A stretch of DNA of 64,000 nt from NCBI RefSeq assembly GCF_963921235.1, contig NC_086108.1, positions 4,216,001-4,280,000 of the forward strand, in the 5' to 3' direction. The stretch comes from Mobula hypostoma. Its lineage: Eukaryota. Each line of letters starts with the position of its first letter. Within the stretch, counting starts at the first letter, position 1. The notes beneath the pieces were generated by a model. The model ran no database searches. It saw only the letters and a program-made list of their open reading frames with translations, and was not told the origin of the DNA. Below, piece after piece: positions 387 through 61,402 of the stretch. The position numbers were made by a program, and so were the translations under genes.

Positions 387-1156
387 ACACGAGGAATTCT
401 GCAGATGCTGGAAATTCAAGCAACACACATCAAAGTTGCTGGTGGAACACAGCAGGCCAGGCAGCATCTCTAGGAAGAGGTACAGTCGACGTTTCCGGTG
501 CTCCTGATGTGGCCTTCTATATATTGGCGAGACCCGACGCAGACTGGGAGATCGTTTTGCTGAACAGCTATGCTCTGTCTGCCAGAGAAAGCAGGATCTC
601 CCAGTGGCCACACATTTTAATTCCACATCCCATTCCCATTCTGACATGTCTATCCATGGCCTCCTCTACTGTAAAGATGAAGCCACACTCAGGTTGGAGG
701 AACAACACCTTATATTCCAACTGGGTAGCCTCCAACCTGATGGCATGAACATTGACTTCTCAAACTTCCGCTAATGTCCCACCTCCCCCTTGTACCCCAT
801 CCGTTATTTATTTATTTACTCATTCTTATTTCTCTCTCTCCTTTTTCTCCCTCTGTCCCTCTCACTATACCCCTTGCCCATCCTCTGAGTTCCCCCCCAC
901 TTTTCCTTCTTCCCGGTCCTCCTGTTCCATGATCCTCTCATATCCCTTTTGCCAATCAACTGTCCAGCTCTTGGCTCCATCCCCCCCCCCCCTGTCTTCT
1001 CCCATCATTTTGGATCTCCCCCTCCCCCCTCCCACTTTCAAATCTCTTACTCACTCTTGCTTCAGTTAGTCCTGACGAAGGGTCTTGGCCCGAAACGTCG
1101 ACTGTACCTCTTCCTAGAGACGCTGCCTGGCCTGCTGCGTTCACCAGCAACTTTGG
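387..1156 (+). mobile_element. Truncated Penelope-like element: inverted terminal-repeat fragment (387-495) + GIY-YIG C-terminus + pseudo-LTR
   Basis: Encodes LYIGETRRRLGDRF..., DLPVATHFNS..., LGSLQPDGMNIDFSNFR. 14-bp TSD TTTATGTTACCCAA at 373-386 and 1157-1170. Confidence 0.85.
1068..1103 (+). ncRNA. Minimal type I hammerhead ribozyme motif in Penelope pseudo-LTR
   Basis: AGTC-CTGACGA-A-GGG(TCTTGG)CCC-GAAA-CG-TC-GACT: stem I AGTC/GACT, core CUGANGA and GAAA, GUC cleavage triplet, palindromic ACGT in place of helix III. Confidence 0.75.
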
Positions 1157-1349
1157 TTTATGTTACCCAATACCATTTTGAGATGTGTTTTCTAGCAGGC
1201 ATTCACAGTAGAACAAAGAATTCCAATACAATCAGTGAAAAACTACACACACTGACAAAAGCAATGTGCAAAAGAAGACAATCTGTGCAAATACAAAAAT
1301 AAGTTAAAAAAAATACTGAAAACATAAGTCTTTTCATCAAAGGTGGATT

Positions 1350-2680
1350 AAATTAAGGTTAGTTTGCCAAATCGAAGGTGGTGACGAATCAATCTACAGG
1401 AGGGAGATTGAAAATGTGGCTGAGTGGTGCCATAACAGCACCCTCTCACTCAATGTCAGTATGACCAAGGAGCTGATTATTGACTTCAGGAAGAGGAAAC
1501 CAGAGGTCCATGAGCCAGTCCTCATCAGAGGGTCAGCAACTTTAAATTCCTCAGTGTTACTATTTCAGGGGACCTGTCCTGGGCCCAGCATGTAAACACC
1601 ATTACAAAGAAAGCACGGCAGCACCTCGACTTCCTCAGCAGTTTGCAAAGATTCAGCACGACATCTAAAGCTTCGACAAACTCCAAACGGTGTGTGCTGG
1701 AGAGTGTATTGACTGGCTGCGTCAGAGTTCAAAGTAAAATTTACTATTGGAGTACAGATATGTCACCACATACAACCCCGAGATCCTTTTTCTGTCTGCA
1801 AACTCTGCAAATCTGCAGAACAGGAACTGTAAACAAGCTGTGCAAATGCAGATAATAAATAAATAGCAATAAATAATGAGTCTGAAATAAGATAAGAGAG
1901 TCCTTAAATGAGTATAGTTACCCCCTTTTGTTCAAGAACCTGAGCAAAAGGCGATAACTTCACTGAGTCGTATGGAAACAACAACACCCTTGAATGGAAG
2001 ATCTTACAAAAAATAGCGGACACAGCCCAGTCCATCACGGGTAAAGCTCACCCCAGCATTGAGCACATCTTTAAAGAGCGTTGTCACAGGAGAGCAGCAT
2101 CCATCATCGGGGACCCCCTCCATGCTTGTCTCTCACCGCTGCCATCAGGTAGAAGGTACAGGAGCCTCAGGACCCAAACCACCAGGTTCAGGGATAGTTA
2201 CTGCTCTTCAAGCAAAAGGGAGAACTTAACTCAACTTCACTCGCCCCATCACTGAAATGTACCCACAACCTATGGACTCACTTTGAAGGGCTCTTCATCT
2301 TATGTTCGTGATATTTATTTATTATTGTTATTATTTTTGTATTTTGTACTTGCACAGCCTGTTGTCTTTTGCATATTGGTTGTTCATCTTAGAACAAGAG
2401 GTACTGCAGACGCTGGAAATCTAGAAAAATGCACACATTGTGCTGGAGGAGCTCAGCAGGTCCTGGTGAAGGGTCTCGGCCCGAAACGTCAACTGTTTAT
2501 TCCCATCCATGGATGCTGCCTGACCTGCTGAGTCCCTCCCGCACTGTATGTGCATTGGCTGTTTGTCCGCCCTGTTGGCTGTGGTCTTTCATTGATTTGT
2601 TTCTTGGATTTGTTGAGCAAAACAAATCGTAGGTTTGTATATGGTGATATATATGTACTTTGATAATAAGTCTACTTTCT
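1350..2680 (+). mobile_element. Decayed Rex1/Babar-type LINE 3' part, interrupted by smaller insertions
   Basis: Frameshifted motifs LSLNVS.TKELIIDFRK, FKFL.V.IS.DLSW.QH, ESVLTGC; 3' region gagcctcaggacc...accaggttcagg. Confidence 0.7.
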
Positions 2681-2730
2681 TCTTCAGGCTCTAAAGTGGG
2701 TCTGTACATTGTGGGATCAGTTCAGTGTTG

Positions 2731-3673
2731 TGGTGAGTGAAGTTATCCACACTGGTTCAGGAGCCTGATGGTTGAGGGGTAATAACTGTTCCTGAACCTG
2801 GTGGTGTGGGACCTGAGGCTCATTGTGGTGAGTGAAGTTATCCACACTGGTTCAGGAGCCTGATGGTTGTGGGGTAATAACTGCTCCTGAACCTGGTGGT
2901 GTGGGACCTGAGGCTCATTGTGGTGAGTGAAGTTATCCACACTGGTTCAGGAGCCTGATGGTTGTGGGGTAATAACTGTTCCTGAACCTGGTGGTGTGGG
3001 ACCTGAGGCTCATTGTGGGGAGTGAAGTTATCCACACTGGTTCAGGAGCCTGACGGTTGTGGGGTAATAACTGTTCCTGAACCTGGTGGTGTGGGACCTG
3101 AGGCTCATTGTGGGGAGTGAAGTTATCCACACTGGTTCAGGAGCCTGATGGTTGTGGGGTAATAACTGTTCCTGAACCTGGTGGTGTGGGACCTGAGGCT
3201 CATTGTGGTGAGTGAAGTTATCCACACTGGTTCAGGAGCCTGATGGTTGTGGGGTAATAACTGTTCCTGAACCTGGTGGTGTGGGACCTGAGGCTCATTG
3301 TGGTGAGTGAAGTTATCCACACTGGTTCAGGAGCCTGATGGTTGAGGGGTAATAACTGTTCCTGAACCTGTTGGTGTGGGACCTGAGGCTCATTGTGGGG
3401 AGTGAAGTTATCCACACTGGTTCAGGAGCCTGATGGTTGTGGGGTAATAACTGTTCCTGAACCTGTTGGTGTGGGACCTGAGGCTCATTGTGGTGAGTGA
3501 AGTTATCCACACTGGTTCAGGAGCCTGATGGTTGTGGGGTAATAACTGTTCCTGAACCTGGTGGTGCGGGACCTGAGGCTCATTGTGCTGAGTGAAGTTA
3601 TCCACACTGGTTCAGGAGCCTGATGGTTGTGGGGTAATAACTGTTCCTGAACCTGTTGGTGTGGGACCTGAGG
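2731..3673. repeat. 95-bp tandem array, 10 copies, derived from a Rex/Babar-type LINE 3' end on the minus strand
   Basis: Unit TGGTGAGTGAAGTTATCCACACTGGTTCAGGAGCC...GGGACCTGAGGCTCATTG starts at 2731, 2826 ... 3586; ORF track repeats with a 95-nt period. Confidence 0.95.
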
Positions 3674-3739
3674 CAGGAGATGGCAGCAGCGAGAAGTAAT
3701 TGATTAAAGCTGATTTTTTTTTTTCTCAAATAAACATCT

Positions 3740-5694: not shown

Positions 5695-6388
5695 CAAACA
5701 GAGAAAATCTGCAGGTGCTGGAAATAAAAGCAACACACACAAAATGCCGGAGGAACTCCACAGGCCACGCAGCATCCATGGGAAAGAGTGAACAGCCAAC
5801 CTTTCGGGCTGAGACCCTTCATCGGAACTGGAGAAAAAAGATGAGGAGTCAGCGTAGGGAGGTGGGGGAGGGGAGGAGGAAGTACAAGGCGGTAGGTGAA
5901 ACCGGCACCGGGGAGGGGTGAAGTGAAGAGCTGGGAAATTGAATGGTGAAAGAGATAACGGGCTGGAGAAGGAGGAATCTGACAGGAGAGGACAGAAGGC
6001 CATGGAAGAAAGGGAGGAGCAGCAGAAGGAGACGATGGGCGGGTAGGAAGATAGGATGAGAGAGGGAAATAGGAATGGTGAGAGAAATGGGAAGGCCATT
6101 ACTGGAAGTTTGAGAAATTAATGTTCATGCCATCAAGTTGGAGCTACTGAGAGGGAATGTAAGGTGTTGCCCATCCAGCCTGAGTGTGGTCTCATCATGG
6201 CAGCAGAGGAGGCCACGGACTGACCTGTCAGACTGGGAATGGGAATGCGAGGTGGAATTAAAACGGGTGGCTGTGGCTGCTGGGAAATCCTGCTTTGTCT
6301 GGCAGATGGACCAAAGGTGCTTCTCCATCCGCCAGAACAGGCGGGATCTCCCAGTGGCCACCCATTTTAATTCCCTTTCCCATTTCTG
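5695..6388 (-). mobile_element. Penelope-like element fragment with short inverted segment (6320-6388)
   Basis: Same pseudo-LTR and GIY-YIG C-terminal sequence as 387-1156, reverse strand; hammerhead core mutated (CCGATGA). Confidence 0.75.
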
Positions 6389-8946: not shown

Positions 8947-8977
<31 letters not shown>

Positions 8978-9117: not shown

Positions 9118-9154
<37 letters not shown>

Positions 9155-11352: not shown

Positions 11353-11595
11353 AACACACATCAAAGTTGCTGGTGAACGCAGCAGGCCAGGCAGCATCTA
11401 TAGGAAGAGGCGCAGTCGACGTTTCAGGCCGAGACCCTTCGTCCCTCACTCTTCCTTCAGTTAGTCCTGACGAAGGGTCTCGGCCTGAAACGTCGACTGC
11501 GCCTCTTCCTATAGATGCTGCCTGGCCTGCTGCGTTCACCAGCAACTTTGATGTATGTTGCTTCAATTTCCAGCATCTGCAGAATTCCTGTTGTT
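11353..11595. mobile_element. Inverted pair of Penelope pseudo-LTR fragments (foldback insertion)
   Basis: 91-bp arms 11353-11443 and 11469-11559 with one mismatch seen, 25-nt spacer; 14-bp TSD TCCTGTACTCAATA at 11339-11352 and 11596-11609. Confidence 0.9.
11463..11498 (+). ncRNA. Minimal hammerhead ribozyme motif (Penelope pseudo-LTR)
   Basis: AGTC-CTGACGA-A-GGGTCTCGGCCT-GAAA-CG-TC-GACT; core intact, stem II closed by a G-U pair. Confidence 0.7.
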
Positions 11596-14416: not shown

Positions 14417-15878
14417 CATCCGCATGCGGTATCTCTTTCTCCCTCTCCCGCCGGGCGGAAGATACAAAAGCTTGGTAGCATGCACCACCGGGCTGAAGGG
14501 CATTGAACAGTCCCCAGTACTATCAGATCAGACTCTTTGCCTCACAGTCTACCTTGTTGTTTGCCTGCACTGCACTTTCTCTGGAGCTGTTATCTGTTAT
14601 CATTTTACCTAGCACTATGGCACGTGGCTGAAAGAAAAATGAAAGGGTTAAATCAATCTTAAAGTCTATATTGAAGAGCCTGCCCTGTGCTGTACAGTTT
14701 TAAGTTGCAAGTTCTATCTATCTCTGCCTTAAGTACACTCAATATTCCATATGAGGTAACAAATCCACAGATTGACCACCCTTTGGCTAATGACATTCCT
14801 GCTCGTCTTTGTCCTAAAGGGATGTCCCTTTATTTTGAGGCTGTACCTCCTGGTCCACTCTGTATAAAAATGCCCCTTTGAAGTTTGGATAGCAAGGAAT
14901 GAGGAACAAGTATTATGCCCTGGTTTCTGTCAGCATAGTGTTGCCTGTCTTTACCCCCCAGAATTGCCCACAGTTCCCCCTGGAGCATGGACAACATGCC
15001 TCAGTGGTCCCTCTGGTGGCGATGACTGGAACTGCGATGGTGAACCAAAAACAGCCTTTTCCACCCCTCACTTCCCAGCTTTTCACCCCCTCCCTCACCC
15101 ACACCCACCTTCCCTCCCACCTATCACCTGCCTGCTCCTCTTGGAGAAAGGCTGTTGGAGGAGATTTGATGGAGGTAGTTTGTATGGGGTTCAGACAGGG
15201 TAGACGGAGGGAAGCTGTATCCATTCTTGGCTCAGGCTTAGTAAGATGGTGAATGTTAGTAAATGCTCAGTGGGTCCGGCAGCGTCTGTGAAGAGAGTAA
15301 ACCAGAGCAATTTCCTGATGAACGGTCTCGGCCCGAAATTCCCACTGTTCATTCCCCTGCATAGATGCTGCCTGACCTGCTGAGTTCCTCCAGTATTTGT
15401 GTGTGTGTGTTGCTCTGGATCTCCAGCATCTGAAGAATCTGTGTCTCTTCTCCCTCCTCACCTGGACCCACCTATCTCCTATCCCTAGCCCCTACCTCAC
15501 CCCTTCCCCTCACCTCTTTATACTACCCATGTCCTGTGTGTTTTTCAGTCCAGTTCAAAGTAAATTTTATTATCAGAATACATATACGTCACCACATACA
15601 ACCCTGAGATTCATTTTCCTGTGGGCATACTCAGCAAATCTGGAGAATAGTAACTACAACAGGATCAATGAATGATCAACTGGAGTGCAGAAGGCAACAA
15701 ACTCTGCAAATGCAAAAATAATTAAATAGCAATAAATAACGAGAACATGTGATAGAGTCCTTAAAGTCAGATCATTGGTTCTAGGACTAAGCAACCGGTT
15801 TAATTTTACGTGGGTTTTTTTTTTTGCATTTCCCATCCCCTCCACCCCAAACTCCTGTGCAGGGAGAGGGCTCCCGCC

Positions 15879-16004
15879 ATGAACAAGCTGAAGCAGAGTC
15901 TACGACGGAAGAAGCAGCCGTATGTGCCTGAAGCGAGCCGCCCGCACCAGTGGCAGTCTGACGAAGAATCGGTGCGCAAGGGCAAGTGTAGCTTCCCAGT
16001 CAGG
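15879..16004 (+). CDS. NUMBL: Numb-like protein, first identifiable coding exon (MNKLKQSLRRKKQPYVPEASRPHQWQSDEESVRKGKCSFPVR); exon starts at 15863
   Basis: Acceptor tgcAG at 15861-62, ATG in ccgccATG context at 15879, donor AGG|gtgagt at 16005, 42 codons, phase 0. Residues QSLRR, VRKG and FPVR resemble NUMBL more than NUMB (QSFRR, VRTG, FPVK). Confidence 0.9.
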
Positions 16005-16124
16005 GTGAGTACCTGGCCGTCTAACTCTGGGGCTGGGAGAACGGCCAAGAGGACTGGGGTATAAAAGCAAGACACGAAGGTTAGCCTTTGTAAGGCATGT
16101 GGAGTACTGTGGGCAGCTTTGACC

Positions 16125-16605
16125 AAAGACCGTAAGATATTGGAACAGAATTGGGCCATTTGGCCCATCGAGTCTACTCTGCCATTTCATCATGGCTGAT
16201 CCATTTTCCCCTCTCAGTCCCAATCTCCTGCCTCCTCCTTCATATCCCTTCATGTTCTGACTAATCAAGAATCTATCGACCTCTGCCTTAAATATACCCA
16301 ATGACTTGGCCTCCACAAAGTCCACAGATTCACCACCCTCTGGCTAAAGAAATTCCTCATTCTCTCTGTTCAGAAAGGATTCACCTCTCTTCTGAGGCTG
16401 TGTCCTCTGGTCTTAGATTCCCCCATCATAGAAAGCATCCCCTTCACATCCACTCTATCGAGGCCTTTCACCATATGATAGGTTTCAATGAGGTCACCCC
16501 CATTCTTCTGAATTCCAGTGCGTAGAGGCCCAGAGCCATCAAACACTCCTCATATGATAAGCCTTTCAATCCCAGAATCGTTTTCGTGAACTTTCTTTGA
16601 ACCCT
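16125..16605 (-). mobile_element. CR1 LINE 3' end
   Basis: VEAKSLGIFKAEVDRFLI (ORF 15900..16325) and CR1 3' UTR just after the first NUMBL coding exon. Confidence 0.82.
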
Positions 16606-16835
16606 GTCTGGGCCCCATGTCTAAGGAAAGAAGTGCTGGTGTTGCAGCGGCTTCAGCGGAAGCTCGTGAGAATGGTCCCGGGACTGGCCTCTTGTCAGCA
16701 GTCATCAGCTTTCAGGAGTCGCCTACTGTCCTAATGAAACTACAGACAGATACAAGGTTTTGTATTGTAGATTGAAAGGGTTAATGCGTGAGGAGCATTT
16801 GATGGCTCTGGGTCTTTACTCACTGATGTTTAAAC

Positions 16836-17564
16836 CAGGGGTCCCCAACCTTTTCTTGCACCGCGGACCGGTTTAATATTGACAATATTCTGGTGGACCG
16901 GCCGACCGGGGGTGGGGGGAGTGTTCAAGTAGGGTTAAACTCACCTCAACATGTCTTTTACGGTTAGGGTTGCCAATTTTCTCACTCCCAAATAAGGGAC
17001 AAAAGTAGCAGTCAAATACCAGGACAGTGTTTACCCCGAGAAAGACTACCATGACCATGAAACCTTGCGTGGGCACCTGTGTGTGCATGCGTGTACCTGC
17101 CGATTTTTTCCACAAATCGGACTTGACTTAATCTTCCTGACTACACAGTACATACATTATTTCTACTTTGTATAGGCTGTGTATTTATCATATCATTCCT
17201 GCTTTTACTATATGTTGGTGTTATTTTAGGTTTTATGTGTTATTTGGAATGATTTGGTAGGTTATTTTTTGGGTCTGGGAACGCTCAAAAATCTTTCCCA
17301 TATAAATTAATGGTAATCGCTTCTTCGCTTTACACCATTTCGGCACAAACGGTTTCATAGGAACGCACTGCATTAGCAGGGGAAATACGGGACAAGGGCG
17401 GTCCCGTAAGGGACAAACCAATTTAGCCCAATATACGGGATGTCCCGGCAAATATGCGACAGTTGGCAACCCTATGTTCAAGTTCAACAGTGCGTGACAG
17501 GGAATGAGGAAAGGTGCAGCTGACTCATATCGGTTCCTCGCGGCCCGGTGGTTGGGGACCGCTG
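16836..17564. mobile_element. hAT (Charlie-like) non-autonomous composite element inserted in a CR1 LINE
   Basis: TIRs CAGGGGTCCCCAACC / GGTTGGGGACCGCTG; 8-bp TSD GTTTAAAC (16828-35) vs GTTTAGAA (17565-72); CR1 sequence resumes across the site. Confidence 0.85.
16930..17474. mobile_element. Nested hAT (Blackjack-like ends TAGGGTT...AACCCTA) element containing a Tigger/pogo-like terminal fragment
   Basis: Perfect 8-bp TSD TGTTCAAG at 16922-29 and 17475-82; inverted motif TAGGGTTGCCAA (16965) / TTGGCAACCCTA (17463-74); multiple CGGGAC-type subterminal motifs. Confidence 0.7.
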
Positions 17565-17620
17565 GTTTAGAAGAATGAGGGGGGAATCTCATTGAACCTA
17601 TCAAATATTGAAAGGCCTCG

Positions 17621-19952: not shown

Positions 19953-20387
19953 CCTCAGAATAGAAGGATGTTTTTTTTAGAAAGGGGATGAGGAGGAATT
20001 TCTTTAGCCAGAGAGTGGTGAATCTGTGGAATTCGTTGCCACAGAGGGCTGTGGAGGCCAAGTCATTGGGGAGATTAAAAGGGGAAGTTGACAGGACCTT
20101 GATTAGTCAGAATGTCAAAAATAACGGGGAGAAGGCAGGAGAATGGCGTTAAGAGTGATAATAAATTAGCCATGATGGAGTGGTGAGGCAGGCTCGATTT
20201 GAGGTGAGGTATAGGTACAAAGTAGATCTTGCTTGCAGCAGCATCACAACACCGATGTGTAGATTTATACTGCATGTAAGCAAGCCATTCAGCCCAACTT
20301 CTCCATTCTAACCCCGTTGTCCAATGGGCAAAGCCTAATCTGCCCGCTTTGGGCCCAAAGCCTTTTACAGCTCTCCTGTGCAGCGCA

Positions 20388-23745: not shown

Positions 23746-23869
23746 GACTCTTTATCTAATTAGTTATGAAATCTGTTTCATGTTGGAATGTTGGAAAAAG
23801 ATATTTTATTTACTCAGATTCAGATTCATTTATTTATCAGACATAGGTCAAAGCTTACCTTAGATTCTG

Positions 23870-29030: not shown

Positions 29031-29066
29031 GAGTTCTATTCATGCAATGTTGGCATGGGTAGTATC

Positions 29067-41705: not shown

Positions 41706-42039
41706 TAAGAAAACTGTTGAAGTTTTAAAGGCAAAAGGTGGTCACGCCAAACATTGATTTGATTATTTGATTTGCTTTTTTTACTGTTTGCTGCTCTTTA
41801 TAGTATTTTTTATATTTATTTAGATATTTTATATTTTAAAAGCATATTTGCTTTACAGAATTTTTTTACTGTATATAAAGTTGGTGAGGGGAAGGGTGGA
41901 GAAAGAATTAGCCGAGGATGGGTGGATCATCAGGTGAGGAGGAACAGTAGGTAGGTAAGAGAGGGAGGAGGTACAGGAGCCTGAAGATACACACTCAATA
42001 ATTCAGGAACAACTTCTTACATACGGACATACGATATTG

Positions 42040-42810
42040 AATTAAATTAAATTGACTTGTTTCGTACATCCTTCATATACATGAGTGAAAATCTTTACGT
42101 TACATCTCTGTCTAAATGTGAAATTTAAAGTAATTTATAATAAATAGTATGTACAACAGGATAGTCAATATAACATAGAAATACAATTGTATCTGCATGA
42201 ATTAATCAGTCTGATGGCCCGGTGGAAGAAGCTGTCCCGGAGCCTGTTGGTCCTGGTGCTGCGGTGCCATTTCCTGGATGGTAGCAGCTGGTTGGGGTGA
42301 TTTGGGTCCCCAATGATCCTTCGGGCCCTTTTTACACACCTGTCTCTGTAAATATCCTGAATCACGGGAAGTACACGTCTACAGATGCGCTGGGCTGTCT
42401 GCACCACTCTCTGCAGAGTCCTGTGATTGAGGGAAGTACAGTTCCCACACCAGGCAGTGATGCAGCCAGTCAGGATGCTCTCGATTGTGTCCCTGTAGAA
42501 AGTTCTCTGCATATGGGGGCACATTCCAAACTTCTTCAACCGTCTGAAGTTAAAGTGACACTGTTGTGCCTTTTTCACCACACAGCTGGTATGTACAGAC
42601 CACGTGAGGTCCTCAGTGATGTGTATGCCGAGGAACTTAAAGCTGTTCACCCTCTCAGCCCTAGATCCATTGATGTCTATAGGGGTTAGCCTGTCTCCAT
42701 TCCTCCTGTAGTCCACAACCAGCTCCTTTGTTTTTGCGACATTGAGGGAAAGGTTGTTTTCTTGACACCACTGTGTCAGGGTGATGACTTCTTCCCTGTA
42801 GGCTGCCTCA
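42040..42810 (-). mobile_element. Rex1/Babar-type LINE 3' portion
   Basis: ORF 42165..42716: VNSFKFLGIHITEDLTWS...ESILTGCITAW...RTNRLRDSFF. Confidence 0.85.
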
Positions 42811-43021
42811 TTATTAATAGGAGCAGGAGCAGACCATCTGGCCCATCAAGCCTGCTCTGCCTTTCAGTAAGATCATGGCTGATCTGGCCATGGACTCATC
42901 TCCACCTACCTGCCTTTTCCCATAACCCTTAATTCCCTTACTATGCAAAAATCTATCTTAATAGATCTATCTATTTTCAAAATCTACCTTAAATATATTT
43001 ACTGAAGTAGCCTCCACTGCG

Positions 43022-44493
43022 TCATACACAAAATGCTGGGGGAGCTCAGCAGGTCAGGCAGCATCTATGGAGAAAGGCACAGTCAATGTTTTGGGCCGAA
43101 ACCCTTCAGCAAGACTGGAGAGAAAAAAGCTGAGGAGTAGATTTGAAAGGTGGGGATGGGAAGAGAGAAATGCCAGGCGAAGGGTGAACCTTGGAGGGGG
43201 GGAGAGATGAAGCAAAGAGCTAGGAAGTTGATTGGTGAAAGAGACAGAAGGCCATGGAGGAAAGAAAAAAGAGGGGAGGGGGAGAGGAGCACCAGAGGGA
43301 GGCGATGAGCGGGCAAAGAGATAGCATGAGATGGGTCAAGGGGATGGGAAATGGTGAAGGAGGTGTGGAGGTATTACCGGAAGTTTGAGAAATCGATGTT
43401 CATGCCATCAGGTTGGAGGCTACCCAAACAGAATATAAGGTGTTGTTCCTCCAACCTAAATATGGCCTCATCGCAACAGCGGAGGAGGCCATGGATGGAC
43501 ATATTGGAATGGGAATGGGAAGTGGAATTAAAATGGGTGGCCACTGGGAGATCCCACTTGTTCTGGCAGACAGAGCGTAGATGCTCGGTGATGTGATCTC
43601 CCAATCTATGTCGGGTCTCACCGATATACTGGAGGCCACACTGGGAGCACTGGACACAGTATATGACCCCAGCAGACTCACAGGTGAAGTGTCGCCTCAC
43701 CTGGAAGGACTGTTTGTGGCCCTGAATGGTAGTGAGGGAGGAGGTGTAGGGACAGGTGTAGCACTTGTTCCGCCTGCAAGAATAAGTGCCAGGAGGGGGA
43801 TTAGTGGGGAGGGACAAATGGACAAGGGAGTCACGTTGGGAGTGATCCCTCCAGAAAGCAGAAAGTGAGGTGGGGGGGAGGGAAAGATGTGTTTGGTGGT
43901 GGGATCCCATTGGAGATGGCGGAAGTTTTGGAGAATTTTGTGCTGGACAAGGAGGCTGGTAGGGTGATAGGTGAGGACAAGAGGAACCCTATCCCTGGTA
44001 GGGTGGTGGGAGGATGGGGTGAAGGCAGCCTTGCGTGAAATGGAAGAGGTGTGGTTGAGGGCAGAATTGATGGTGGGAGAAGGGAAGCTCCTTTCTTTGA
44101 AAAAGGAGGACATCTCCTTCGTTCTAAAATGAAGAGCCTCATCCTGAGAGCAGATGTGGTAGAGATGGAGGAATTGAGAGAAGGGGATGGCGTTTTTACA
44201 AATAGCATGGTGGGTCGAGGTTATAGTCCTGGTAGCTGTGAGAGTCCGTTGGTTTATAATAGCTATCAGTGGATAAGCTATCTCCGGAGACCCTGGTACT
44301 TGTAAAAACACCATCCCCTTCTTTCACTTCACCTGTGAGTCTGTTGGGGTCATATATCGTGTTCAGTGCTGGTGCTCCCAGTGTGGCCTCTTTCATATCG
44401 GTGAGACCCGACATAAATTGGGAGACCCCTTTGCCAAGCACCTACAATCTGTCTGCCAGAACAAGTGGGATCTCCCAGTGGCCACCCGTTTTA
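43022..44493 (-). mobile_element. Penelope-like element: RT C-terminal region, Cys-rich linker, GIY-YIG endonuclease, pseudo-LTR; inverted (+) segment from about 44300
   Basis: ORF 43374..43910: C..NKCYTCP...FTCESAGVIYCVQCSQCGLQYIGETRHRLGDHITEH; ORF 43697: IPFSQFL, RVPLVLTYHP. Confidence 0.9.
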
Positions 44494-47400
44494 ACATAGT
44501 AACATAAAAAACCTACAGCACAATACTGGCCCATTGGCCCACAATGCTGTGCTGAACATGTCCTTATTTTAGAAATTACCTAGGATTACCCATAGCCCTC
44601 TATTTTTCTAAGCTCCATGTACCCATCCAGGAGTCTCTTAAAAGACCCTATTGTATCCGCCTCCACCACCATCACCAGCAGCCCATTCCACACACTCACC
44701 ACTCTCTGCATAAAAAACTTACCCCTGACATCTCCTCTGTACCTACTTCCAAGCACCTTAAAACTGTGCCCTCTCGTGTTAGCCATTTCAGCCCCGGGAA
44801 AAAACCTCTGACTATCCACACGATCAATGCCTCTCATCATCTTATACGCCTCTATCAGGTCACCTCTCATCCTCCGTCACTCCAAGGAGAAAAGGCCGAG
44901 TTCGCTCAACCTATTCTCATAAGGCATGCTCCCCAATCCAGGAAAAATTTTTGTAAATCTCTGCACCCTTTCTATGGTTTCCACATCCTTCCTATAGTGA
45001 GGTGACCAGAACTGAGCACAGTACTCCAAGGGGTCTGACCAGGGTCCTATGTAGCTGCAACATTACATCTCGGCTCCCAAACTCAATCCCATGGTTGATG
45101 AAGTCCAATGCGCCATATGCCTTATTAACCACAGGTCAACCTGCGTAGCAGTTTTGAGTGTCCTATGGACTTGGACCCCAAGATCCCTCTGATCCTTCAC
45201 ACTGCCAAGAGTTTTACCATTAATGCTATATTCTGCCATTATATTTGATCTACCAAACTGAACCACCTCATACTTATCTGAGTTGAACTCCATCTGCCAC
45301 TTCTCAGCCCAGTTTTGTATCCAATCGATGTCCCGCTGTAACCTCTGACAGCCCTCCATACTATCCACAACACCCCCAACCTTTGTTTCATCAGCAGATT
45401 TACTAACCCATCCCTCCACTTCCTCATCCAAGTCATTTATAAAAATCACAAAGAGAAGGGGTCTCAGAACAAATCCCTGAGGCACACCACTGGTCACCGG
45501 CCTGCACACAGAATTATGACCTGTCTACAACCACTCTTTTCCTAGTCTGGGCAAGCTAGTTCTGGATCCACAAAGCAATGTCCCCTTGGATCCCATGCCT
45601 CCTTACTTTCTCAATAAGCCTTGCATGAGGTACCTTATCAAATGCCTTGCTGGAATCCATATACACTACATCTACTGCTCTACCTTCATCAATGTGTTTA
45701 GTCACATCCTCAAAAAATTCAATCAGGCTCGTAAGGCACGACCTGCCATTCACAAAGCTATGCTGACTATTCTTAATCATATTATGCCTCTCCAAATGTT
45801 CATAAATCCTGCCTCTCAGGATCTTTTCCATCAACTTACCAGCCTCTGAAGTAAGACTCACTGGTCTATAATTTCCTGGGCTATCCCTACTCCCTTTCTT
45901 GAATAAGGAAACAACATCTGCAACCCTCCAATCCTCCAGAACCTCTCCCGTCCTCATTGATGATGCAAATATCATCGCCAGAGGCTCAGCAATCTCTTCC
46001 CTCGCCTTCACATACTTAGAGAATGCCTTGGAGTTTTCTTTAATCCTGCTTGCCAAGGCCTTCTCATGGCCCCTTCTGGCTCTCCTAATTTCATTCTTAA
46101 GCTGCTTCCTGCTAACTTTATAATCTTTTAGATCTCTCTCATTATCTAGTTTTTTGAACCTTTCGTAAGCTGTTCTTCTTGACTAGATTTTCAACAGCCT
46201 TTGTACACCATGGTTCCTGTACCCCACCATCCTTTCCCTGTCTCATTGGAACGTACCTATGCAGAACGCCACGCAAATAACCCCTGAACATTTGCCACAT
46301 TTGCCACATTTCTGAGAGGGAAGATAGGCATTAAAATAGACACATCTCAAACCACCATGGGTCTGAGCGCATCCCTTCTCTATCACCTGCCTATCCTCCC
46401 TCTCGCACTGTCTGTAAGCTTTCTCGATTTGTGAGCCAACCACCCCTTCCTCCGACTCTTCAGTTCGGTTCCCACCCCCCACCAATTCTAGTTTAAACTC
46501 TCCCCAATAGCCTTAGCAAACCTCCCAGCCATGATATTGGTCCCCCTCAGATTCAAGTGCAACCCATCCCTTTTGTACATGTAGCCCCCTGGTAAGCCTC
46601 AGACTCGCTCAGCTCGCCTTCGTCTAAGGGGAGCAGCCTTTGGCCCCGCCAAACTGGGTAATCAAGTTTGTGTGGATGCTGTGTGATGTACCCCACCCCG
46701 CCAAATAATAGACAGTTCACCATATGCGATTTACAGAATACCATTTATGGATCTTACTGGAACTATGTAATTAATAGAGATACAATACAAAAGGAGAAGT
46801 AAAAGGCACCAAACTTATCAGAGTTCAACCACTTCATGCACAACCATTGGAGCTCAATTAACGGGGTCCTGTTTCCACCATTCGATCCCCTCCGACCCCC
46901 TCGACCCGCCGCCTGGGACCAACCACGGTGGTCGACCAGAGCGCGTCCAGCACGTCCTTCCTCTTCGGTTCTCCTCCCAAAACCCTGGGCCTCGGACTCC
47001 CGCTCGGGGTCCGTCCCGTCGCCCAGTTTACAGCATCGCGTCTCCTCCCTCTGTCCCCATCGTGCCTTCTGCCCCAAAGCCCACGAAAACAATAGCTTAC
47101 AGACACACAAGAAAGAATAACATCTATCCCAATTGGTTAGCAAATGAATACTCGATCAGTAATTATAACCCAAACAAGCCGCTATAGAGAAGCACTTTCT
47201 CAGCAGTTAACGTAACAAAGAAGCCAATTTTATTAGCCTTAGCAGTAACATAAAAGAAGAAACCCCTTACATACAGGACACTCCTGCCCCAAAAGAGGTC
47301 CCAATGATCCAGAAATCTGAATCCCTGCCCCCTGCTCCAATCCCTCAGCCACCCATTTATCCTCCACCTCATTCTATTCCTATTCTCACTTTCGCATGGC

Positions 47401-48315
47401 ACAGGCAGTAATCCGGAGATGACTACCTTTGGAGGTCCTGCTTCTCAACTTCCTCCTTCCTAACTCCCTGTAGTCTGCTTTCAGGACCTCCTCCCTTTTC
47501 CTCCCTATGTCGTTGGTACCAATATGTACCACGACCTCTGGCTGTTCTCCTTCCCACTCCAGGCGCGATCAGAAACATCCCGGACCCTGGCACCTACATT
47601 CCATTCATTCCGTTCCGTACATTCATGCAAGCTACGTTCCGTGTTTCTTTCCGGCATCCAAAAAATCGCCTGTCTACACCCCCCATCCCACAACTATAGA
47701 GTCCCCTATCACTGCTGCCATTCTCTTCCTTTCCCTACCCTTCTGAGCCACAGGCCCAGACTCTGTGCCAGAGGCGTGACCACTGTTGCTTCCCCCAGCT
47801 AGGCCAGCTCCCCCAACAGTACTCAAACAGGAGTACTTATTGTTAAGGGGACAGCACAGGGGTACTCTCTAGTGTCTGACTCTTGCCCTTCCCTCTCCTG
47901 ACTGTTACCCAGTTATCTTGTCTCCTCAGGCCCCGGAGTCACTACTTGCCTATAGCTCCTCTCTATCACCTCCTCACTCTCCCTGACCAGACGAAGGTCA
48001 TCGAGCTGCATCTCTAGTTCCCTAACCCGGTCCCTAAGGAGCTGCAACTCGATGTACCTGGTGCAGATGTGGCCTTCCGGGAGGCTGGGAGTCTGCGGGA
48101 CGTTCCACATCTGACACCCAGTACAGGACGCCGGCCTCACACACATTCTTCCTGTTTCTATTCTACACAAGTAAACTACCTTGCCTTGACCCGTTATCGC
48201 TGGGTCCCCGTTGAACCAAAGCCCTCCTACTCTGTCTCCCTCTACTCTGAGCCCGATCTCCTTTTAAACACTTCTCACTGTTCTAACTGGCTGACGTCCA
48301 TGCACTTGCGCAGTC
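44494..48315 (-). mobile_element. CR1 LINE retaining 5' end and ORF1 (zinc finger/coiled coil + esterase) and an internally deleted ORF2
   Basis: CTGCQMW...HICTR.IELQLLRDRVRELEMQLDDL; GFRFLDHWDLFWGR; NYRPVSLTS, KAFDKVPH, VTSGVPQG, RGDLIEAYK. Confidence 0.9.
46580..47271. mobile_element. Solo LTR (692 bp) inserted in CR1 ORF1
   Basis: Starts TGTAG, ends TTACA; 4-bp TSD TACA at 46576-79 and 47272-75; interrupts the CR1 esterase motif LY|KRDGLHLN. Confidence 0.8.
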
Positions 48316-48812
48316 GTGCTTCCCATTCCCATTCCAGTATGTCCATCCATGGCCTCCTCCACGGCCAGGATAAGGTCACTCCTAGGTTGGAGGAACAACA
48401 CCTTATATTTTGTTTGGGTAGCCTCCAACCTGATGGCGTGAACATCGATTTCTCAAACTTCCAGTGATGCCTCCCCCGCCCCCCCACCTTCACCATTTCC
48501 CATCTCCTTGTCCCTCTCTCCTTACCTGCCCATCGCCTCCCTCTGGTGCTCCCCTCTCCCTTTCATCTTTCTTCCATGGCCTTCTGTCTCTTTCACTAAT
48601 CAACTTTCTAGCTCTTTGCTTCATCCCTCCAGCTCCAAGTTTCACCTATCGCCTGGTGTTTTTCTCTCCCCTCCCCCCGACCTTTCAAATCTACTCCTCA
48701 GCTTTTTCCCCCCAGTCCTGCCAAAGGGTTTCGGCTTGAAATTTCTACTGTAGTCTTTTCCATAGATGCTACCTGGCCTGCTGAGTTCCTCCAGCATTTT
48801 GTGTGTGTTGCC
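48316..48812 (+). mobile_element. Continuation of the + strand Penelope arm split by the CR1 insertion
   Basis: Sequence ...CCACCCGTTTTAA at 44493 resumes as ...CTTCCCATTCCCATTCC at about 48318; RLEEQHLIFCLGSLQPDGVNIDFSNF, then pseudo-LTR. Confidence 0.82.
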
Positions 48813-49460
48813 CGAGTTATGCGATTCGCCAGGATTCAGGTCGCCTCACGGTTCAGGTGGAGCTTGTCCCATTGGTACAGCTCCCTCCTTCCTCAATACT
48901 GGTGCGAGTTTGCCATGAATTTAAACCCACTTCTCCCACGTCAATCCTTGAGCCACACATTTAAATCTCTAATCTCCTTAACCCTGTGACAATTTGAATA
49001 TTGCTCAGGTAGTAATCTAGAGATTACCACCTTGTTGGTGCCCCTCCACCATCCGATTTCTGAATGAACATTGAACCCATGAACAGACCTCACTTTTTTA
49101 TTTCTATTTTTGCACTACTTATTTAATTTAACTATTTATGTAGTTACTGTAATTCAGTTTTTAATATGTATTCCATTGTACTGCTGCTGCAAAATATCAA
49201 ATTGCATGACATACAGTATTCCGGTGATACTAAACCAGATTCTGACTGAAAAGTCCACAATCCCCTTCATATTATCTCACTAACCCTCTTTTGCACAATT
49301 TACTTATTTTTGCAACTTTAATTATTACTTTTATATATAGGTCTTGTACTCTACACTTGGTACAATACAACTTTCATGGCCTTACTCTGCTCCCATATCT
49401 TATGGTCTTTTATCTGACAAGTCAGTGGTAATAAACCTTGATTTAGTTTCAGAGGGAATC

Positions 49461-49820
49461 ATTCCCACCCCACCTCCCTCACTGCCAGTTACCTGGATCC
49501 ATCTATCAACTGCCAGCTCCATTCCCATCCCACCTCCCTCGCTGCCAATCAGATGGATCCACCTATCAGCTGTATTCCCACCCCACCTCCCTCACTGCCA
49601 ATCACCTGGATCCACCTATCAACTGCCAGCTCCATTCCCATCCCACCTCCCTCACTGCCAATCACCTGGATCCACCTATCAGCTGTATTCCCACCCCACC
49701 TCCCTCATTGCCAATCACCTGGATCTACCTATCAACTGCCAGCTCCGTTCCCATCCCACCTCCCTCGCTGCCAATCACCTGGATCCACCTATCAGCTGCC
49801 AGCTCCATTCCCACCCCTTC
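49461..49820 (+). repeat. Alternating 60/53-bp tandem array (113-bp higher-order unit) derived from a Penelope 3' region
   Basis: Unit starts 49461, 49521, 49574, 49634, 49687, 49747, 49807; followed by a degenerate pseudo-LTR (CAGTCCTGTTGAAGGGTCT). Confidence 0.85.
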
Positions 49821-50189
49821 CCCTCACCTCTTTTTACAGGCCATCTCCTCCTTTTCTTTCCAGTCCTGTTGAAGGGTCTGGACTCAAATGCCCCTCCACA
49901 GCCTGCCCGGGTTCCTCTGGCTGCTTTCTGTGTTCCTCCAGGTTTGCAGAGTCTGCTGTGGTTCACTTATTGAGAGATGTAGCACTGTCATTCCAACCCA
50001 ATGGGCCCCAGCACCCACGTGGCCAATTCCTGGTACGTCCCTTGGGTGGGCAGGAGGAACTGGAGCACCCAGAGGAAAGCCTCACGGTCACGGGGGAACG
50101 TACACACTCTTTACAATCAGCGGTGGGAATTGAACCGGGGTCGCTGGACATAATGCTAACTGCTGTGCCATCGTGTTCCGTCAGACCTT

Positions 50190-50790
50190 TACCTCCTCCA
50201 GCTCCTTTCATCAGGATTGGATTGGAAGGGGGAAGAGGCCGGAATGAGAAGGTGGGGGGAGAGGGGAAGGAGTACAAGCTGGCAGGTGATAGGTGAGACC
50301 AGGTGAGGGGAAAGGTGGGTGAGTGGGATGAAGTGAGAAGCCGGGAGGGGCTAGGTAGAAAAGGTAAAGGGCTGGACAAGCAGGAGTCTGGAAGTAGGGG
50401 AGAGTGGACCATGGTAAAAAGGAAAGGAGGAGGGGCAACAAGAGGTGATGAGCAGGTGAAGAGTAACCACTCCCCTGTTTTCTCTGTTCTGGTTCCCTCT
50501 CTCCCATGGTCCACTCTTCTCTCTTATCAGGTTCCACCTTCTTCAGCTCTGTATCTCTTCCACCTATCACCTCCCAGCTTCTTACTTCATTCCCCCCTCC
50601 CACTTAGCCTCACTTCTCACCTGCCAGCCTGTCCTCCTTCCCCTCCCCTCCCCCCACCTTATTTTAGCTTTCTCCCCCTTCCTTTCCATCCCTGATGAAG
50701 GGTTTTGGCCCAATGTGTTGACTGTTTATTCCCCTCCATCGATTCTGTCTGAGCTGCTGAGTTCTTCCAGCATTGTGTGTGTGTGTTGTT
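50190..50790. mobile_element. Inverted pair of Penelope 3' fragments just upstream of a NUMBL exon
   Basis: Purine-rich minus arm (about 50195-50460) and pyrimidine-rich plus arm (about 50470-50790) ending CCAGCATTGTGTGTGTGTG. Confidence 0.7.
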
Positions 50791-50874
50791 ACAGGACACA
50801 TCAATTCCAGGACCCGTGGCTCCTGCCTCTTTCTGTTGGCTCACCGACTGATCCGTTCCTCTGTCTCTCCTCAG

Positions 50875-51015
50875 GACCTCATAGTGGATCAGACGATCGA
50901 GAAGGTTTCCTTCTGTGCTCCTGATCGGAACTACGACAAAGCCTTTTCATACATCTGCCGGGATGGCACCACCAGGCGATGGATCTGCCACTGTTTCATG
51001 GCACTAAAGGACTCG
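50875..51015 (+). CDS. NUMBL: Numb-like PTB domain exon ([47 protein letters not shown])
   Basis: Strong pyrimidine tract + tcAG, 141 nt, TCG|gtgagg donor; in ORF 50773..51204. DKAF and ALKDS are NUMBL-type. Confidence 0.95.
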
Positions 51016-52846
51016 GTGAGGGACACCTTCAGCATTCCCACCCTTGTGTTCCGATCCCCTTGTGGTCTGGCTCCCTCCCCCTCCTCCCCCGCGACTGCCC
51101 ACGAGATCCCTGTACTCCCCCAACTCCACTTGGTCACTCCACCTTGCGAGGCAGTGCCTTCAGCTCCCCAGATCCCAAGCTCATTGAATCTGTATAAGGT
51201 TTAAGGAGGAATCTCGGAGATCCTACAAAGGAGGATGTCCCCCTCTTTGCAATCTTTGTCTATTGTTCAACATCTCGATCGTCCACTATCGTGGCAGTAG
51301 ACCATCATGTCTTCTGTGTATTTATTTATTTGGTGATACAGCACAGTGACAGATCTTTCTGGCCAAACAAGCCCGCGCTGTCCATGTGACCAATTAACCC
51401 TTACATCGCCAATGTGACCAATTGACTGCGCTACCCATGTGACCGATTAACCCTTACGTCTTGGAAGCGGGAGGAAATCCCCACAGTCACGGGGGGAACG
51501 TGCAAACTGCTTACAGACAGTGGTGGGATTTGAACCCAGGTCGCTGGCCTACACCATTGTGCCACCCAAGAAATTCAACAGAAAATTGACCTTTCCTTCA
51601 AAGCTACAAGTCTAAAGCGAGACCCAACTTCAAAGAACACTGCCATGGCTTTAAACAGTTCTTGTGTGATAACACTCTTGTGAAGTTATACAGGCTGTCC
51701 CTGGGATACAAGCACCTGGACACCCCATCATATGAGTGAGCTACTGTAATATTATTCAACTGAGAAATCCGACATACATGCACACATTCATTCCTATGAC
51801 CAGCAGGGCCAGCTGCCTCTCTCTCCACTTTCAGTAGTTGTTCTTATCAAAGGGGATGTGAGGGGTAAGTGTTTTACTCAGAGAGTGATGGATGCCTGGA
51901 ATGTGCTGCCTGGTCTGGTGGAAGAGGTAAATACATTAGAGGCTTTTAAGAGACATTTGGAGAGGCACATGGATGTGAGGAAGATGGAGGGATATGGACA
52001 TGGTGTCGGAAGGATGGATTAGTGCTTGGGTGTCCTTTATTTGCTTTTTAGCTTCTATATAACGTTACCGCACAGTACAGGCCCTTTGGCCCATGATATT
52101 GTGCTGCATTTTTAATCTATTCCCAGATCAATCTCACCCGTCCTTCCCATATAGGCCTCCATTTTTCTGCCATCCATGTGCCTCCACCTAAGAGTCTCTT
52201 AAATGTCCCTAATGTACCCACCTCTACCACCACCCCGGCAACGCGTTCCATGCACCCACCACTCTCTGTGTAAAAAAAAACCTGCCTCTGACATCTCCTT
52301 GGTACTTTCTTCCAATCACCTTAAAATTATGCCCCCTCATGTTAGCCTTTCTGCCTTGGGAGAAAGGCGCTGTCTATCCATATGATCTGTGCCTCTTATC
52401 ATCTTGTACACCTCTTTCGAGGCACCTCTCATCCTCCTCTCCATACAGAAACTTGCCAGCCCACTCACCCTGTCTGCCTGGGACACGCTGTCTCAACCAG
52501 GCAGCATCCCGGTAAATCTCCTCTCATTAAACGTTTGTTGACCAATCACAGGAGTGCAGCCGCGTGGCGTACTCCAGACATCCAATCACAGTGTCAAAAC
52601 GGGTTGGGTTTGCAAAAGATGGACATGATGGGCACCCAATCAGGGGAGTGGGTTAGGTTGGTCTGGTATCCAATTATGGGAGAAACCTGGAATGATGGAC
52701 ATGTTGTGCAACCAATCACATGAGTGTAAGGGTGGAACAGTATAATGTCATGTACCTATCCGTCCTGGAAGACCCAATTCTTTTTGCCCGTGTCCCCAAT
52801 TAACCCTTGCTCAAGCACTGATTAATTGTGCTGTGCTGGATTCCAG

Positions 52847-53051
52847 GGGGAGCGATTGAGCCACGCCGTGGGCTGTGCCTTCGCCGCCTGCCTGGAGCGG
52901 AAACAGAAACGGGAGAAGGAATGCGGGGTGACAGCCTCTTTTGATGCAAGCCGGACAAGCTTCACCAGGGAAGGCTCCTTCAGGGTGACGACCGCCTCCC
53001 AGCAGGCCGAGAGGGAAGACAACATGAAGCAGCTGCAGGACAAGAAGAAAG
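52847..53051 (+). CDS. NUMBL: Numb-like exon ending the PTB domain ([68 protein letters not shown] + 1 nt)
   Basis: ttccAG acceptor, 205 nt, AAG|gtgaag donor (phase 1); in ORF 52826..53173. No further exon was recognised before 64000. Confidence 0.92.
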
Positions 53052-53074
53052 GTGAAGGGCTGAGTGGCAAGCTC

Positions 53075-60600: not shown

Positions 60601-60620
60601 GAAGTTCTCAGAAGAGCCCA
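57606..60620 (+). mobile_element. Near full-length decayed RTE (BovB-like) LINE
   Basis: LRISTWNV, IIQVYAPT, VMGDFNAKV, NQIDYI, RTISLMSH, FIDYKKAFDTV, GVRQGCVFSP, NIRYADD. Confidence 0.92.
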
Positions 60621-60639
60621 AGACACTAGATACTAGAAT

Positions 60640-61190
60640 ACTACAGCACGTTACAGGCCCTTCAGCCCTCGATGTTGTGCTGACCCATATATTCCTTAAA
60701 AAAAAGTACTAAACCCACACTACCCCGTAACCCTCTATTTTTCTTTCATCCATGTGCCTGTCCAAGAGGTTCTTAAATACCCCTAATGTTTTAGCCTCCA
60801 CCACCATCCCTCGCAAGTCATTCCAGGCACCCACAACCCTCTGTGTAAAAAACTTACCCCTGATGTCTCCCCTAAACTTCCCTCCCTTAACTTTGTACAT
60901 ATGCCCTCTGGTGTTTGCTATTCATGCCCTGGGAAACAAGTACTGGCTATCCACCCTATCTATGCCTCTCATAATCTTGTCAACCTCTATCAAGTCCCCT
61001 CTCATCCTTCTATGCTGCAAAGAGAAAAGTCCCAGCTCTGCTAACCTTGCCTCATAAGACTTGTTTTCCAATCCCAGCAACATCCTGGTAAATCTCCTCT
61101 GCACCCTCTCCATAGCTTCCACATCCTTCCTATAATGAGGTGAGCAGAACTGAACACAATACTCAAGTGTGGTTTCACCAGAGATTTGTT
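60640..61190 (-). mobile_element. CR1 LINE 3' end
   Basis: ORFs 60922..61122 and 60709..60900 with CR1 C-terminal motifs. Confidence 0.88.
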
Positions 61191-61271
61191 ATTAGCTTCA
61201 AACTTTCTGCATAATCACTCAAAGAGTTGAACTGCATGTGCATGTAACGACAGCTGTATAACTTGTCTCCT

Positions 61272-61402
61272 TTCAAATCTCTTACTAACTCTTCCTTCAG
61301 TTAGTCCTGACGAAGGGTCTCAGCCTGAAACGTCGACTGTACCTCTTCCTACAGATGCTGCCTGGCCTGCTGCGTTTACCAGCAACTTTGATGTGTGTTG
61401 CT
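61272..61402 (+). mobile_element. Solitary Penelope pseudo-LTR fragment
   Basis: TSD TAACTTGTCTCCT (61259-71) / TAACTCGTCTCCT (61403-15); nearly identical to 1036-1155. Confidence 0.85.
61303..61338 (+). ncRNA. Minimal hammerhead ribozyme motif, sense to the NUMBL pre-mRNA
   Basis: AGTC-CTGACGA-A-GGGTCTCAGCCT-GAAA-CG-TC-GACT. Confidence 0.68.

Follow-up and report, generated by a model that had tools for sequence, protein, structure and literature searches.

Introduction

The closest described relatives of the motifs reported here are the minimal hammerhead ribozymes (min-HHRs) of metazoan Penelope-like elements, or PLEs (Cervera and De la Pena 2014, PMC4209133). These have a U-rich 5' flank, a helix I of 4-5 bp, the consensus CUGANGAH (with one extra base), G10.1 and GAAA, and a palindromic ACGU replacing helix III, with a GUC site; they are mostly found as solo motifs on truncated PLEs, with an opposite-strand partner nearby (PMC4209133). 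All of these traits recur in the window, a 64,000-nucleotide stretch of Mobula hypostoma DNA (NC_086108.1, positions 4,216,001 to 4,280,000). The minimal-hammerhead identity and dimer-type design proposed for the motifs in an initial annotation are supported.

In published tests, PLE hammerhead monomers were inactive and dimers cleaved weakly. The hammerhead of the Anolis Poseidon element cleaves upon protein addition, and a C3G/G8C rescue identified true hammerhead chemistry; insertion in vitro was unaffected in hammerhead mutants, and RNA-seq showed no read starts or ends at the Anolis cut site (PMC11167929). An inverted 5' arm and a one-sided tail are published traits of PLEs, and a Cys zinc-finger-like linker is a mark of the Neptune and Nematis PLEs (PMC8557442).

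Results

Three complete motifs had been annotated in the window, and both the sequence and a descriptor scan place them, with C17 at 1099, 11494 and 61334, where they had been reported. The scan, which covered both strands, returned exactly three matches (copies 1-3, Table 1); in 100 dinucleotide shuffles the mean was 0.01 matches and the maximum one, three matches being reached in 0/100. In each copy, AGTC and CTGACGA are followed by A, 12 nt of the stem II region, GAA, ACGT, C and GACT. All three have the extra A between positions 9 and 10.1 and, without a helix III, the palindromic ACGT at 15.2-16.2; stem I can be extended to 5 bp via a U-G pair.

Table 1. Coordinates and strands of the features located in the window.
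Feature	Position	Strand	Remarks
min-HHR copy 1	1068..1103	+	complete core, G10.1-C11.1; predicted cut after 1099
min-HHR copy 2	11463..11498	+	G10.1-U11.1; predicted cut after 11494; sequestered by own inverted arm
min-HHR copy 3	61303..61338	+	G10.1-U11.1; predicted cut after 61334; downstream of fifth NUMBL coding exon
5'-truncated PLE insertion with copy 1	387..1156		14-bp duplication 373-386 / 1157-1170
Parts of copy 1 insertion			inverted arm 387-498(-) with tail; endonuclease C-terminus 496-771(+); 3' UTR
Short PLE insertion with copy 2	11353..11595		14-bp duplication 11339-11352 / 11596-11609
Parts of copy 2 insertion			inverted arm 11353-11443(-) starting at G5; sense arm 11445-11595 with tail
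Solo PLE tail with copy 3, about 130 bp	61270..61402	+	duplication 61259-61271 / 61403-61415
Decayed min-HHR	2460..2494	+	A6>G; 5'-truncated at stem I; short inverted arm
Decayed min-HHR	5794..5829	-	U4, C15.2, C17 changed; downstream of endonuclease remnant 6102-6370(-)
Decayed min-HHR	15311..15346	+	G10.1 and palindrome changed
Decayed min-HHR	23635..23669	+	A6, G12, C15.2 changed; downstream of endonuclease remnant about 23150-23415
Strongly decayed ninth copy	33446..33482	-	absent from initial annotation
Decayed min-HHR of longest PLE remnant	43081..43116	-	C3, A6, G12, G16.2, C17 changed
Decayed min-HHR	48714..48749	+	A6, G8 and others changed; downstream of endonuclease remnant 48345-48464
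Partial decayed min-HHR	49862..49889	+	
Decayed min-HHR	50688..50723	+	G12, A14, A15.1 and others changed
Frameshifted PLE ORF remnant	43377..44300	-	end of RT, C-x4-C-x2-C linker, GIY-YIG endonuclease
Inverted partner of this ORF remnant	44325-44494		
First five NUMBL coding exons	15879..53056	+	15879-16004, 28506-28580, 36163-36237, 50875-51015, 52847 to about 53050

An Rfam search, which the initial annotation had proposed, was run on the window (E<=5) and contained no hammerhead among its 9 matches, which is the outcome to be anticipated when helix III is lacking. A MIR6020 match at 11400-11512 was rejected as a microRNA (58 bits vs. a cut-off of 118) and corresponds to the copy 2 inverted repeat. 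It is extremely improbable that the likeness to a hammerhead arose by chance within a repeat: the lack of an Rfam match, fold z-scores of only -2.0, -1.2 and -1.3 for copies 1-3, and their membership in one family, so that they represent a single evolutionary event, would be compatible with chance, but the fit to the published consensus is exact, it sits where such a motif should lie within a PLE, and a distant relative identified through its protein shares the architecture. This relative, a PLE family found at three loci (L001-L003) by protein search alone, displays 32-34% identity and carries a min-HHR 177 nt downstream, with stems wholly different from those of the window copies. These three are the only protein-found loci with a complete motif (3/16); L016 has the core without stem I, and a convincing motif is absent from 12 of the 16, including L005, which is 95-99% like L001-L003.

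The Penelope origin suggested by the initial annotation was supported by endonuclease remnants upstream of the motifs, target-site duplications, inverted 5' arms and a one-sided tail. Copies 1-3 each lie in a separate 5'-truncated insertion flanked by a target-site duplication of 13-14 bp (13 bp with one mismatch for the copy 3 tail). Those of copies 1 and 2 combine 5' truncation, an inverted 5' copy and a one-sided tail, the copy 2 insertion containing a 91-bp inverted repeat (99%). Endonuclease remnants were found upstream on the same strand in five of the 12 full or near-full copies (1068, 5829, 23635, 43116 and 48714), and in these the min-HHR follows the end of the endonuclease at a distance of about 260-300 nt. 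Homologues to which the ORF remnant at 43377-44300 could be aligned gave GIY-YIG and weak RVT_1 matches; since none of five PLE peptides from the window had a Pfam match, domains were assigned by means of these homologues (GIY-YIG in 7/7; RVT_1 in 3/7, all RT scores being below the Pfam cut-off). The C-x4-C-x2-C linker preceding the endonuclease is invariant in alignment A1. Judged by their sequences, the window remnant and its homologues match the architecture of an EN+ PLE, RT followed by a C-terminal GIY-YIG; the element is likely a member of the Neptune clade, and the complete motifs are assigned to the min-HHR in its 3' pseudo-LTR.

All eight core-mutated copies of the initial annotation were recovered by BLAST/nhmmer, at 2460, 5829(-), 15313, 23635, 43116(-), 48714, 49862 (partial) and 50688, each with at least one core change, and a ninth was added. 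Both core boxes (CUGANGA and GAAA) plus NUH are complete in 3 of 12 copies. Partial inverted arms are present at 498(-) and 11443(-). A target-site duplication was looked for around the copy at 15313 and none was found; the copy at 2460 has a candidate of 10 bp with one mismatch. No compensatory changes in the stems were seen among window copies or among variants in the contigs of run X1. The three complete copies are near-identical, and hence carry no covariation signal.

The identity of the NUMBL gene was confirmed, its remaining exons lying beyond the window. The annotated scatter of the motifs across this locus was refined: copy 1 lies 14.8 kb and copy 2 4.4 kb upstream of the NUMBL start codon, and only copy 3 of the complete copies is downstream of it. 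No upstream NUMBL exon was found in the window with the N-terminal extensions of three shark/skate isoforms as queries (best E 0.06). The decayed copy at 50688..50723 ends about 150 nt 5' of a NUMBL exon. Nine of the 12 copies are in sense orientation to NUMBL (p=0.15, not significant, and weak at n=12), so that a purge of sense copies is not visible.

The summed depth of the family was about 1.1e7, compared to 26-53 in the unique flank; summed depth is no true copy number, and suggests related copies genome-wide on the order of 10^5. The U11.1 variant accounts for 43.5% of contig depth vs. 7-14% at other CpGs; mere CpG decay was therefore rejected, and G10.1-U11.1 is a propagated subfamily variant. 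Nine of the 12 variants listed at 1076-1105 in the run X1 contigs are CpG transitions. Such transitions also hit the core, at G8 (7.4%) and G12 (11.5%), indicating that dead copies decay without sparing it. Other families enter the alignment at 1068 (791 contigs) and exit at 1105 (579 contigs). Young-vs-old identity was 0.78 for the motif, against 0.36 for the 5' flank and 0.48 for the 3' flank nearest to it; the block at 1119-1140 reached 0.85, matching the motif in conservation, which is therefore no privilege of the latter. CpG decay was lower in X15, whose RNA nature is a guess, and this is not taken as a sign of expression. The contigs carry no RNA ends, and raw-read runs X21 and X22 contributed 1 and 0 reads. 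A motif pattern scan of viral contigs gave 0 matches.

Discussion

The initial annotation had proposed that the window copies could self-cleave as dimers. This is not supported for these particular copies. The predicted monomer fold is inactive, the core pairing with CGUC, and the double hammerhead (-16.7, -11.5 and -11.5 kcal/mol) lies above the cofold minimum (-35.9, -30.3 and -25.2 kcal/mol), so that inactive folds would be favoured by 14-19 kcal/mol; nearest-neighbour energies omit the tertiary core and thereby understate the active fold. The complete copies are also solo and far apart (about 10 and 50 kb), with none in tandem and no full-length element or tandem pair of their family seen in the window, and copy 2 is predicted to be locked in its 91-bp hairpin. 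By analogy with published PLE hammerheads, any activity would be low or protein-dependent.

We consider it very improbable that intronic sense copies are active in vivo, pairing in cis or trans with near-identical copies or helped by a PLE protein, so that NUMBL would be cut along with other pre-mRNAs. Three complete cores, all sense to NUMBL, the abundance of related copies suggested by summed depth, and protein-dependent cleavage in Anolis would favour such activity; the preference for inactive folds, the sequestration of copy 2, the behaviour of published monomers and dimers, the missing read ends at the Anolis cut site and the absence of an antisense bias (weak at n=12) speak against it. 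The broader notion, that intact sense intronic copies with cis/trans partners or PLE protein constitute a genome-wide source of intronic RNA cleavage, with the U11.1 subfamily as a tuned-down form, is very improbable.

The motifs are very probably minimal type-I hammerheads of the 3' pseudo-LTR in 5'-truncated copies of a highly amplified PLE, likely of the Neptune clade, and these solo copies are likely inert passengers. As in published relatives, an intact element transcribed in tandem may bring two motifs together through stem I and the ACGU palindrome; alternatively, the element's protein may help to fold the hammerhead. Motifs paired or folded in this manner would cut after GUC. Selection would act on the motif only in such intact source elements, while inserted copies would decay chiefly at CpGs, core included.

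A different explanation is that the motif persists in source elements for reasons other than cleavage, either because the hairpin has a structural role or binds protein, or simply as a passenger. Insertions extend 57-100 nt beyond the predicted cut site, which means that no cut had been made in the 3' motif of their templates; Poseidon insertion in vitro is indifferent to hammerhead mutations, Naiad PLEs thrive without canonical hammerheads, and 2/12 copies begin at stem I, with several contig joints returning to 1068/1069. This explanation is unlikely, as distant families have entirely different stems and yet retain the catalytic boxes, the extra base and the palindrome, and the Poseidon rescue demonstrates hammerhead chemistry. 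The reading as PLE hammerheads, inert once inserted, is preferred.

This ray family joins a class described in many animals since 2014, and as such matters little. What it offers is scale: the family is young, its copies are very numerous, and the 10.1-11.1 pair exists in two amplified variants, which makes it good material for asking whether PLE hammerheads cut in vivo, and why; it is not special to NUMBL or to the window.

Neither U11.1 nor the extra A could be retained as a new feature, both being present in published PLE min-HHRs. The viroid precedent invoked by the initial annotation stands: the CChMVd plus-strand hammerhead (extra A10) has its extra A between A9 and G10.1, as here, but it belongs to a viroid, has loop-loop contacts and is no relative, serving as a precedent only for the additional base (PMC3705267); an extra base is also standard in PLE min-HHRs (PMC4209133). 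In the part of the PMC4209133 alignment considered, the ACGU-C end is the same as in the Ixodes, sea urchin, fugu and lamprey rows, G10.1-U11.1 also occurs in the cichlid, Latimeria and Xenopus rows, and there is no shark or ray row; two of the paper's supplement files make no mention of shark, skate, Callorhinchus or Leucoraja. Helix II is short here (4 bp) compared to 7-8 bp in Schistosoma.

Animal non-LTR retrozymes likewise carry Type I hammerheads from PLE pLTRs (Li et al. 2026, bioRxiv 10.64898/2026.07.22.740005), and were present in the only chondrichthyan genome sampled there. Retrozymes are defined as tandem arrays with a hammerhead per unit, whereas the window copies are dispersed solos, two or more adjacent units that each hold a complete hammerhead being found nowhere in the window. 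The Anolis Poseidon element (PAc; Frangieh et al. 2024, PMC11167929) belongs to the Penelope/Poseidon clade, whereas the window element has the Neptune/Nematis Cys linker; as here, its hammerhead lies in the pLTR, and its internal RT start gives an optional tail at one insertion end, like that of the window copies (PMC11167929).

Hammerhead motifs in the NUMBL locus

Both strands were searched with a type I hammerhead descriptor having a relaxed helix III, as the initial annotation had proposed, and the only matches were the three complete motifs that it had placed, at coordinates which agree with the sequence as read. When the window was dinucleotide-shuffled 100 times, the descriptor matched 0.01 times per shuffle on average (maximum 1); as the three motifs are copies of one repeat, this shows a hammerhead motif above background and not three separate origins. 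BLAST and nhmmer recovered all eight decayed copies already named, together with one unnamed decayed copy and two partial inverted arms of the repeat, and each decayed copy carries at least one core change. An Rfam scan of the window at E<=5 gave nine matches, hammerhead among none.

Coordinates of hammerhead copies and other features in the window
Feature	Position (strand)	C3	C17	Target-site duplication
Copy 1	1068-1103 (+)	1072	1099	373/1157, 14 bp
Copy 2	11463-11498 (+)	11467	11494	11339/11596, 14 bp
Copy 3	61303-61338 (+)	61307	61334	61259/61403, 13 bp, one mismatch
Copies beginning at stem I's first bases	2460; 15311
Further decayed copy	33482 (-)
Partial inverted arms	498 (-); 11443 (-)
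Conserved block 3' of motif	1119-1140
Inverted repeat	11353-11559
Longest Penelope-like remnant	43020-44494
Frameshifted ORF end of this remnant	43377-44300 (-)
NUMBL start codon	15879
95-bp tandem arrays	2633-3787; 25344-26213; 27144-27823
61/63-bp tandem array	17533-19915
tRNA-like match	25195-25266 (-)
Putative endonuclease and RT frames	58217-60546 (+)
Presumed CR1-like fragments	20909-22908; 45066-46182

Five exons in the window encode NUMBL residues 1-209; the peptide is identical to the numb-like protein of Mobula hypostoma (P0069), and per exon it shares 86-100% identity with the five further shark and ray proteins compared, making a Mobula-type ray the likely host. Copy 3 lies downstream of the fifth coding exon, with later exons outside the window, and is therefore an intronic copy in sense orientation. 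For copies 1 and 2, which precede the start codon, an intronic position is likely: the exon with the start codon follows a splice-acceptor-like end, but no upstream NUMBL exon was found in the window. Sense orientation was seen in 9 of 12 hammerhead copies (p=0.15).

Among the other repeats, the 95-bp arrays are ~98% identical to one another and the 61/63-bp array has ~40 units in a higher-order pattern. The tRNA-like match (30.9 bits, barely over the Rfam cut-off) is probably a SINE head. The putative endonuclease and RT frames are long and frameshifted; judged by eye, they resemble a non-LTR (LINE) element.

The carrier element

The Penelope origin claimed initially was borne out by endonuclease remnants, target-site duplications, inverted 5' arms and one-sided tails. 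Of the 12 full or near-full copies, 5 have an endonuclease remnant upstream on their own strand, and the duplications mark the three complete copies as separate insertions. An inverted 5' arm and a tail confined to one of the arms are present in copies 1 and 2, a combination described as a signature of Penelope-like elements (PLEs) (PMC8557442, PMC11167929).

The 164-aa C-terminal peptide of the frameshifted ORF end had 21 homologues among 140 candidates, the best of them from rays (72-80% identity). Pfam found GIY-YIG in 7/7 scanned homologues and RVT_1 in 3/7, the latter all under the cut-off, and a C-x4-C-x2-C linker is invariant across the alignment. We infer that the carrier belongs to the Neptune clade, because such a linker is given as a trait of Neptune and Nematis (PMC8557442) and the vertebrate groups of a 2026 preprint are given as Neptune and Poseidon (bioRxiv 10.64898/2026.07.22.740005). 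Five ray gene models (P0003, P0004, P0009, P0014, P0018) include the endonuclease peptide under host names (mucin-2, DIPK1C, CHID1, others), probably by annotation read-through into repeats.

Copies across the ray genome

Four public runs were aligned to window positions 860-1200 at 80% likeness. In the assembled run X1, 63,415 contigs matched, and summed depth over the motif (~0.6-1.2e7, compared to 26-53 in unique flank), which is not a copy number and leaves some differences uncounted, suggests some 10^5 related copies. The raw-read runs X21 and X22 gave one and no matching reads, too few to test anything; that X15 is an RNA run is a guess.

Positions are given in the usual hammerhead numbering, and the roles of G8 and G12 are likewise standard knowledge. 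Among the 12 X1 variants listed at 1076-1105 (counted from 3% upward, with four further rows), nine are CpG transitions, eight of them at 7-14%. In dead copies the core is not clearly spared from decay, since G8 (7.4%) and G12 (11.5%) show such transitions like their neighbours. The core conservation across genome-wide copies that had been put forward as a test was thus not seen within the family; its lack would be expected if selection acts on source elements only. C11.1>U stands at 43.5%, far above the other CpG transitions, and U11.1 is therefore the mark of an amplified subfamily that likely includes copies 2 and 3.

The motif is retained between families, as indicated by contig joints (791 contigs join the alignment at 1068 and 579 depart at 1105) and by young-versus-old identity in the window: 586/753 in the motif, 140/386 upstream and 152/315 just downstream. 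The block at 1119-1140 is equally conserved (394/462), so the motif is not the sole constrained part. Between subfamilies this 22-nt block scores 0.85 and the hammerhead 0.78; it is a candidate protein-binding or RT-start signal. Six of the 12 contig joints listed (eight more exist) return to 1068 or 1069; together with the two of 12 window copies that begin at stem I, this hints at a preference for the hairpin's outer edge in 5' truncation or at tandem junctions. Some of these joints would be short tandem pairs, natural candidates for dimers.

Predicted folding and mechanism

In the predicted 38-nt monomer fold of all three copies, core GACG pairs with CGUC, which would be an inactive form. 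The double hammerhead of copies 1, 2 and 3 was predicted at -16.7, -11.5 and -11.5 compared to cofold minima of -35.9, -30.3 and -25.2 kcal/mol, energies that leave the tertiary core out of account. In 146-nt context folds the motif of copy 3 is disrupted and copy 1 retains the inactive hairpin; copy 2 is predicted to be enclosed in a 91-bp hairpin. The corresponding inverted repeat (91 bp, 99%) would, if transcribed, give long double-stranded RNA, and has a weak MIR6020 score in Rfam.

Gaps of 10.4 and 49.8 kb separate the complete copies. The insertions run 57-100 nt beyond the cut site, and their templates were therefore uncut at this motif. Any hammerhead function would likely lie in tandem transcripts of source PLEs, the window copies being likely passengers.

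Metazoan PLE minimal hammerheads are described as lacking helix III, and that of Schistosoma as uncleaved in the monomer and weakly cleaved in dimers (PMC4209133). For Anolis Poseidon, cleavage is reported to need protein, hammerhead mutants to leave in vitro insertion unaffected, and no RNA-seq read ends to fall at the cut site (PMC11167929).

Distant relatives in metagenomes

Searching metagenome contigs by protein alone yielded 16 loci. Three of them (L001-L003) form one family, 98-99% identical in DNA among themselves and 32-34% identical to the query in protein. Each has a complete minimal hammerhead (at 2781, 2781 and 2392) downstream of a distant Neptune-like ORF, 177 nt past the protein match (0.02 hits in shuffles). 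Its stems differ, and it has the extra A, G10.1-U11.1, a palindrome of AUAU and a GUA-like AUA site. In L016 a hammerhead core is present but stem I is missing. No convincing motif was seen in the remaining 12 loci, several of which have >1.3 kb of 3' sequence and one of which (L005) belongs to the family of L001-L003.

Comparison with known hammerheads

No publication dealing with the present ray family was found in the mostly open-access literature searched; supplements to the 2026 preprint may name it, and shark and skate terms are absent from two supplement files of PMC4209133. Retrozymes with hammerheads are reported from one chondrichthyan (bioRxiv 10.64898/2026.07.22.740005), but the ray copies differ in having no tandem array and are therefore not a retrozyme. 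The published PLE consensus comprises a U-rich flank, CUGANGAH, G..C and GAAAN-palindrome-NUH (PMC4209133). The three complete ray copies match it at every base, two of them having G-U at 11.1, as also in published cichlid, Latimeria and Xenopus rows (PMC4209133). The extra A, initially likened to a viroid hammerhead, was confirmed for CChMVd (PMC3705267) and is described as a general trait of PLE minimal hammerheads (PMC4209133). The ray family is a known kind of hammerhead, and the initial identification was correct.
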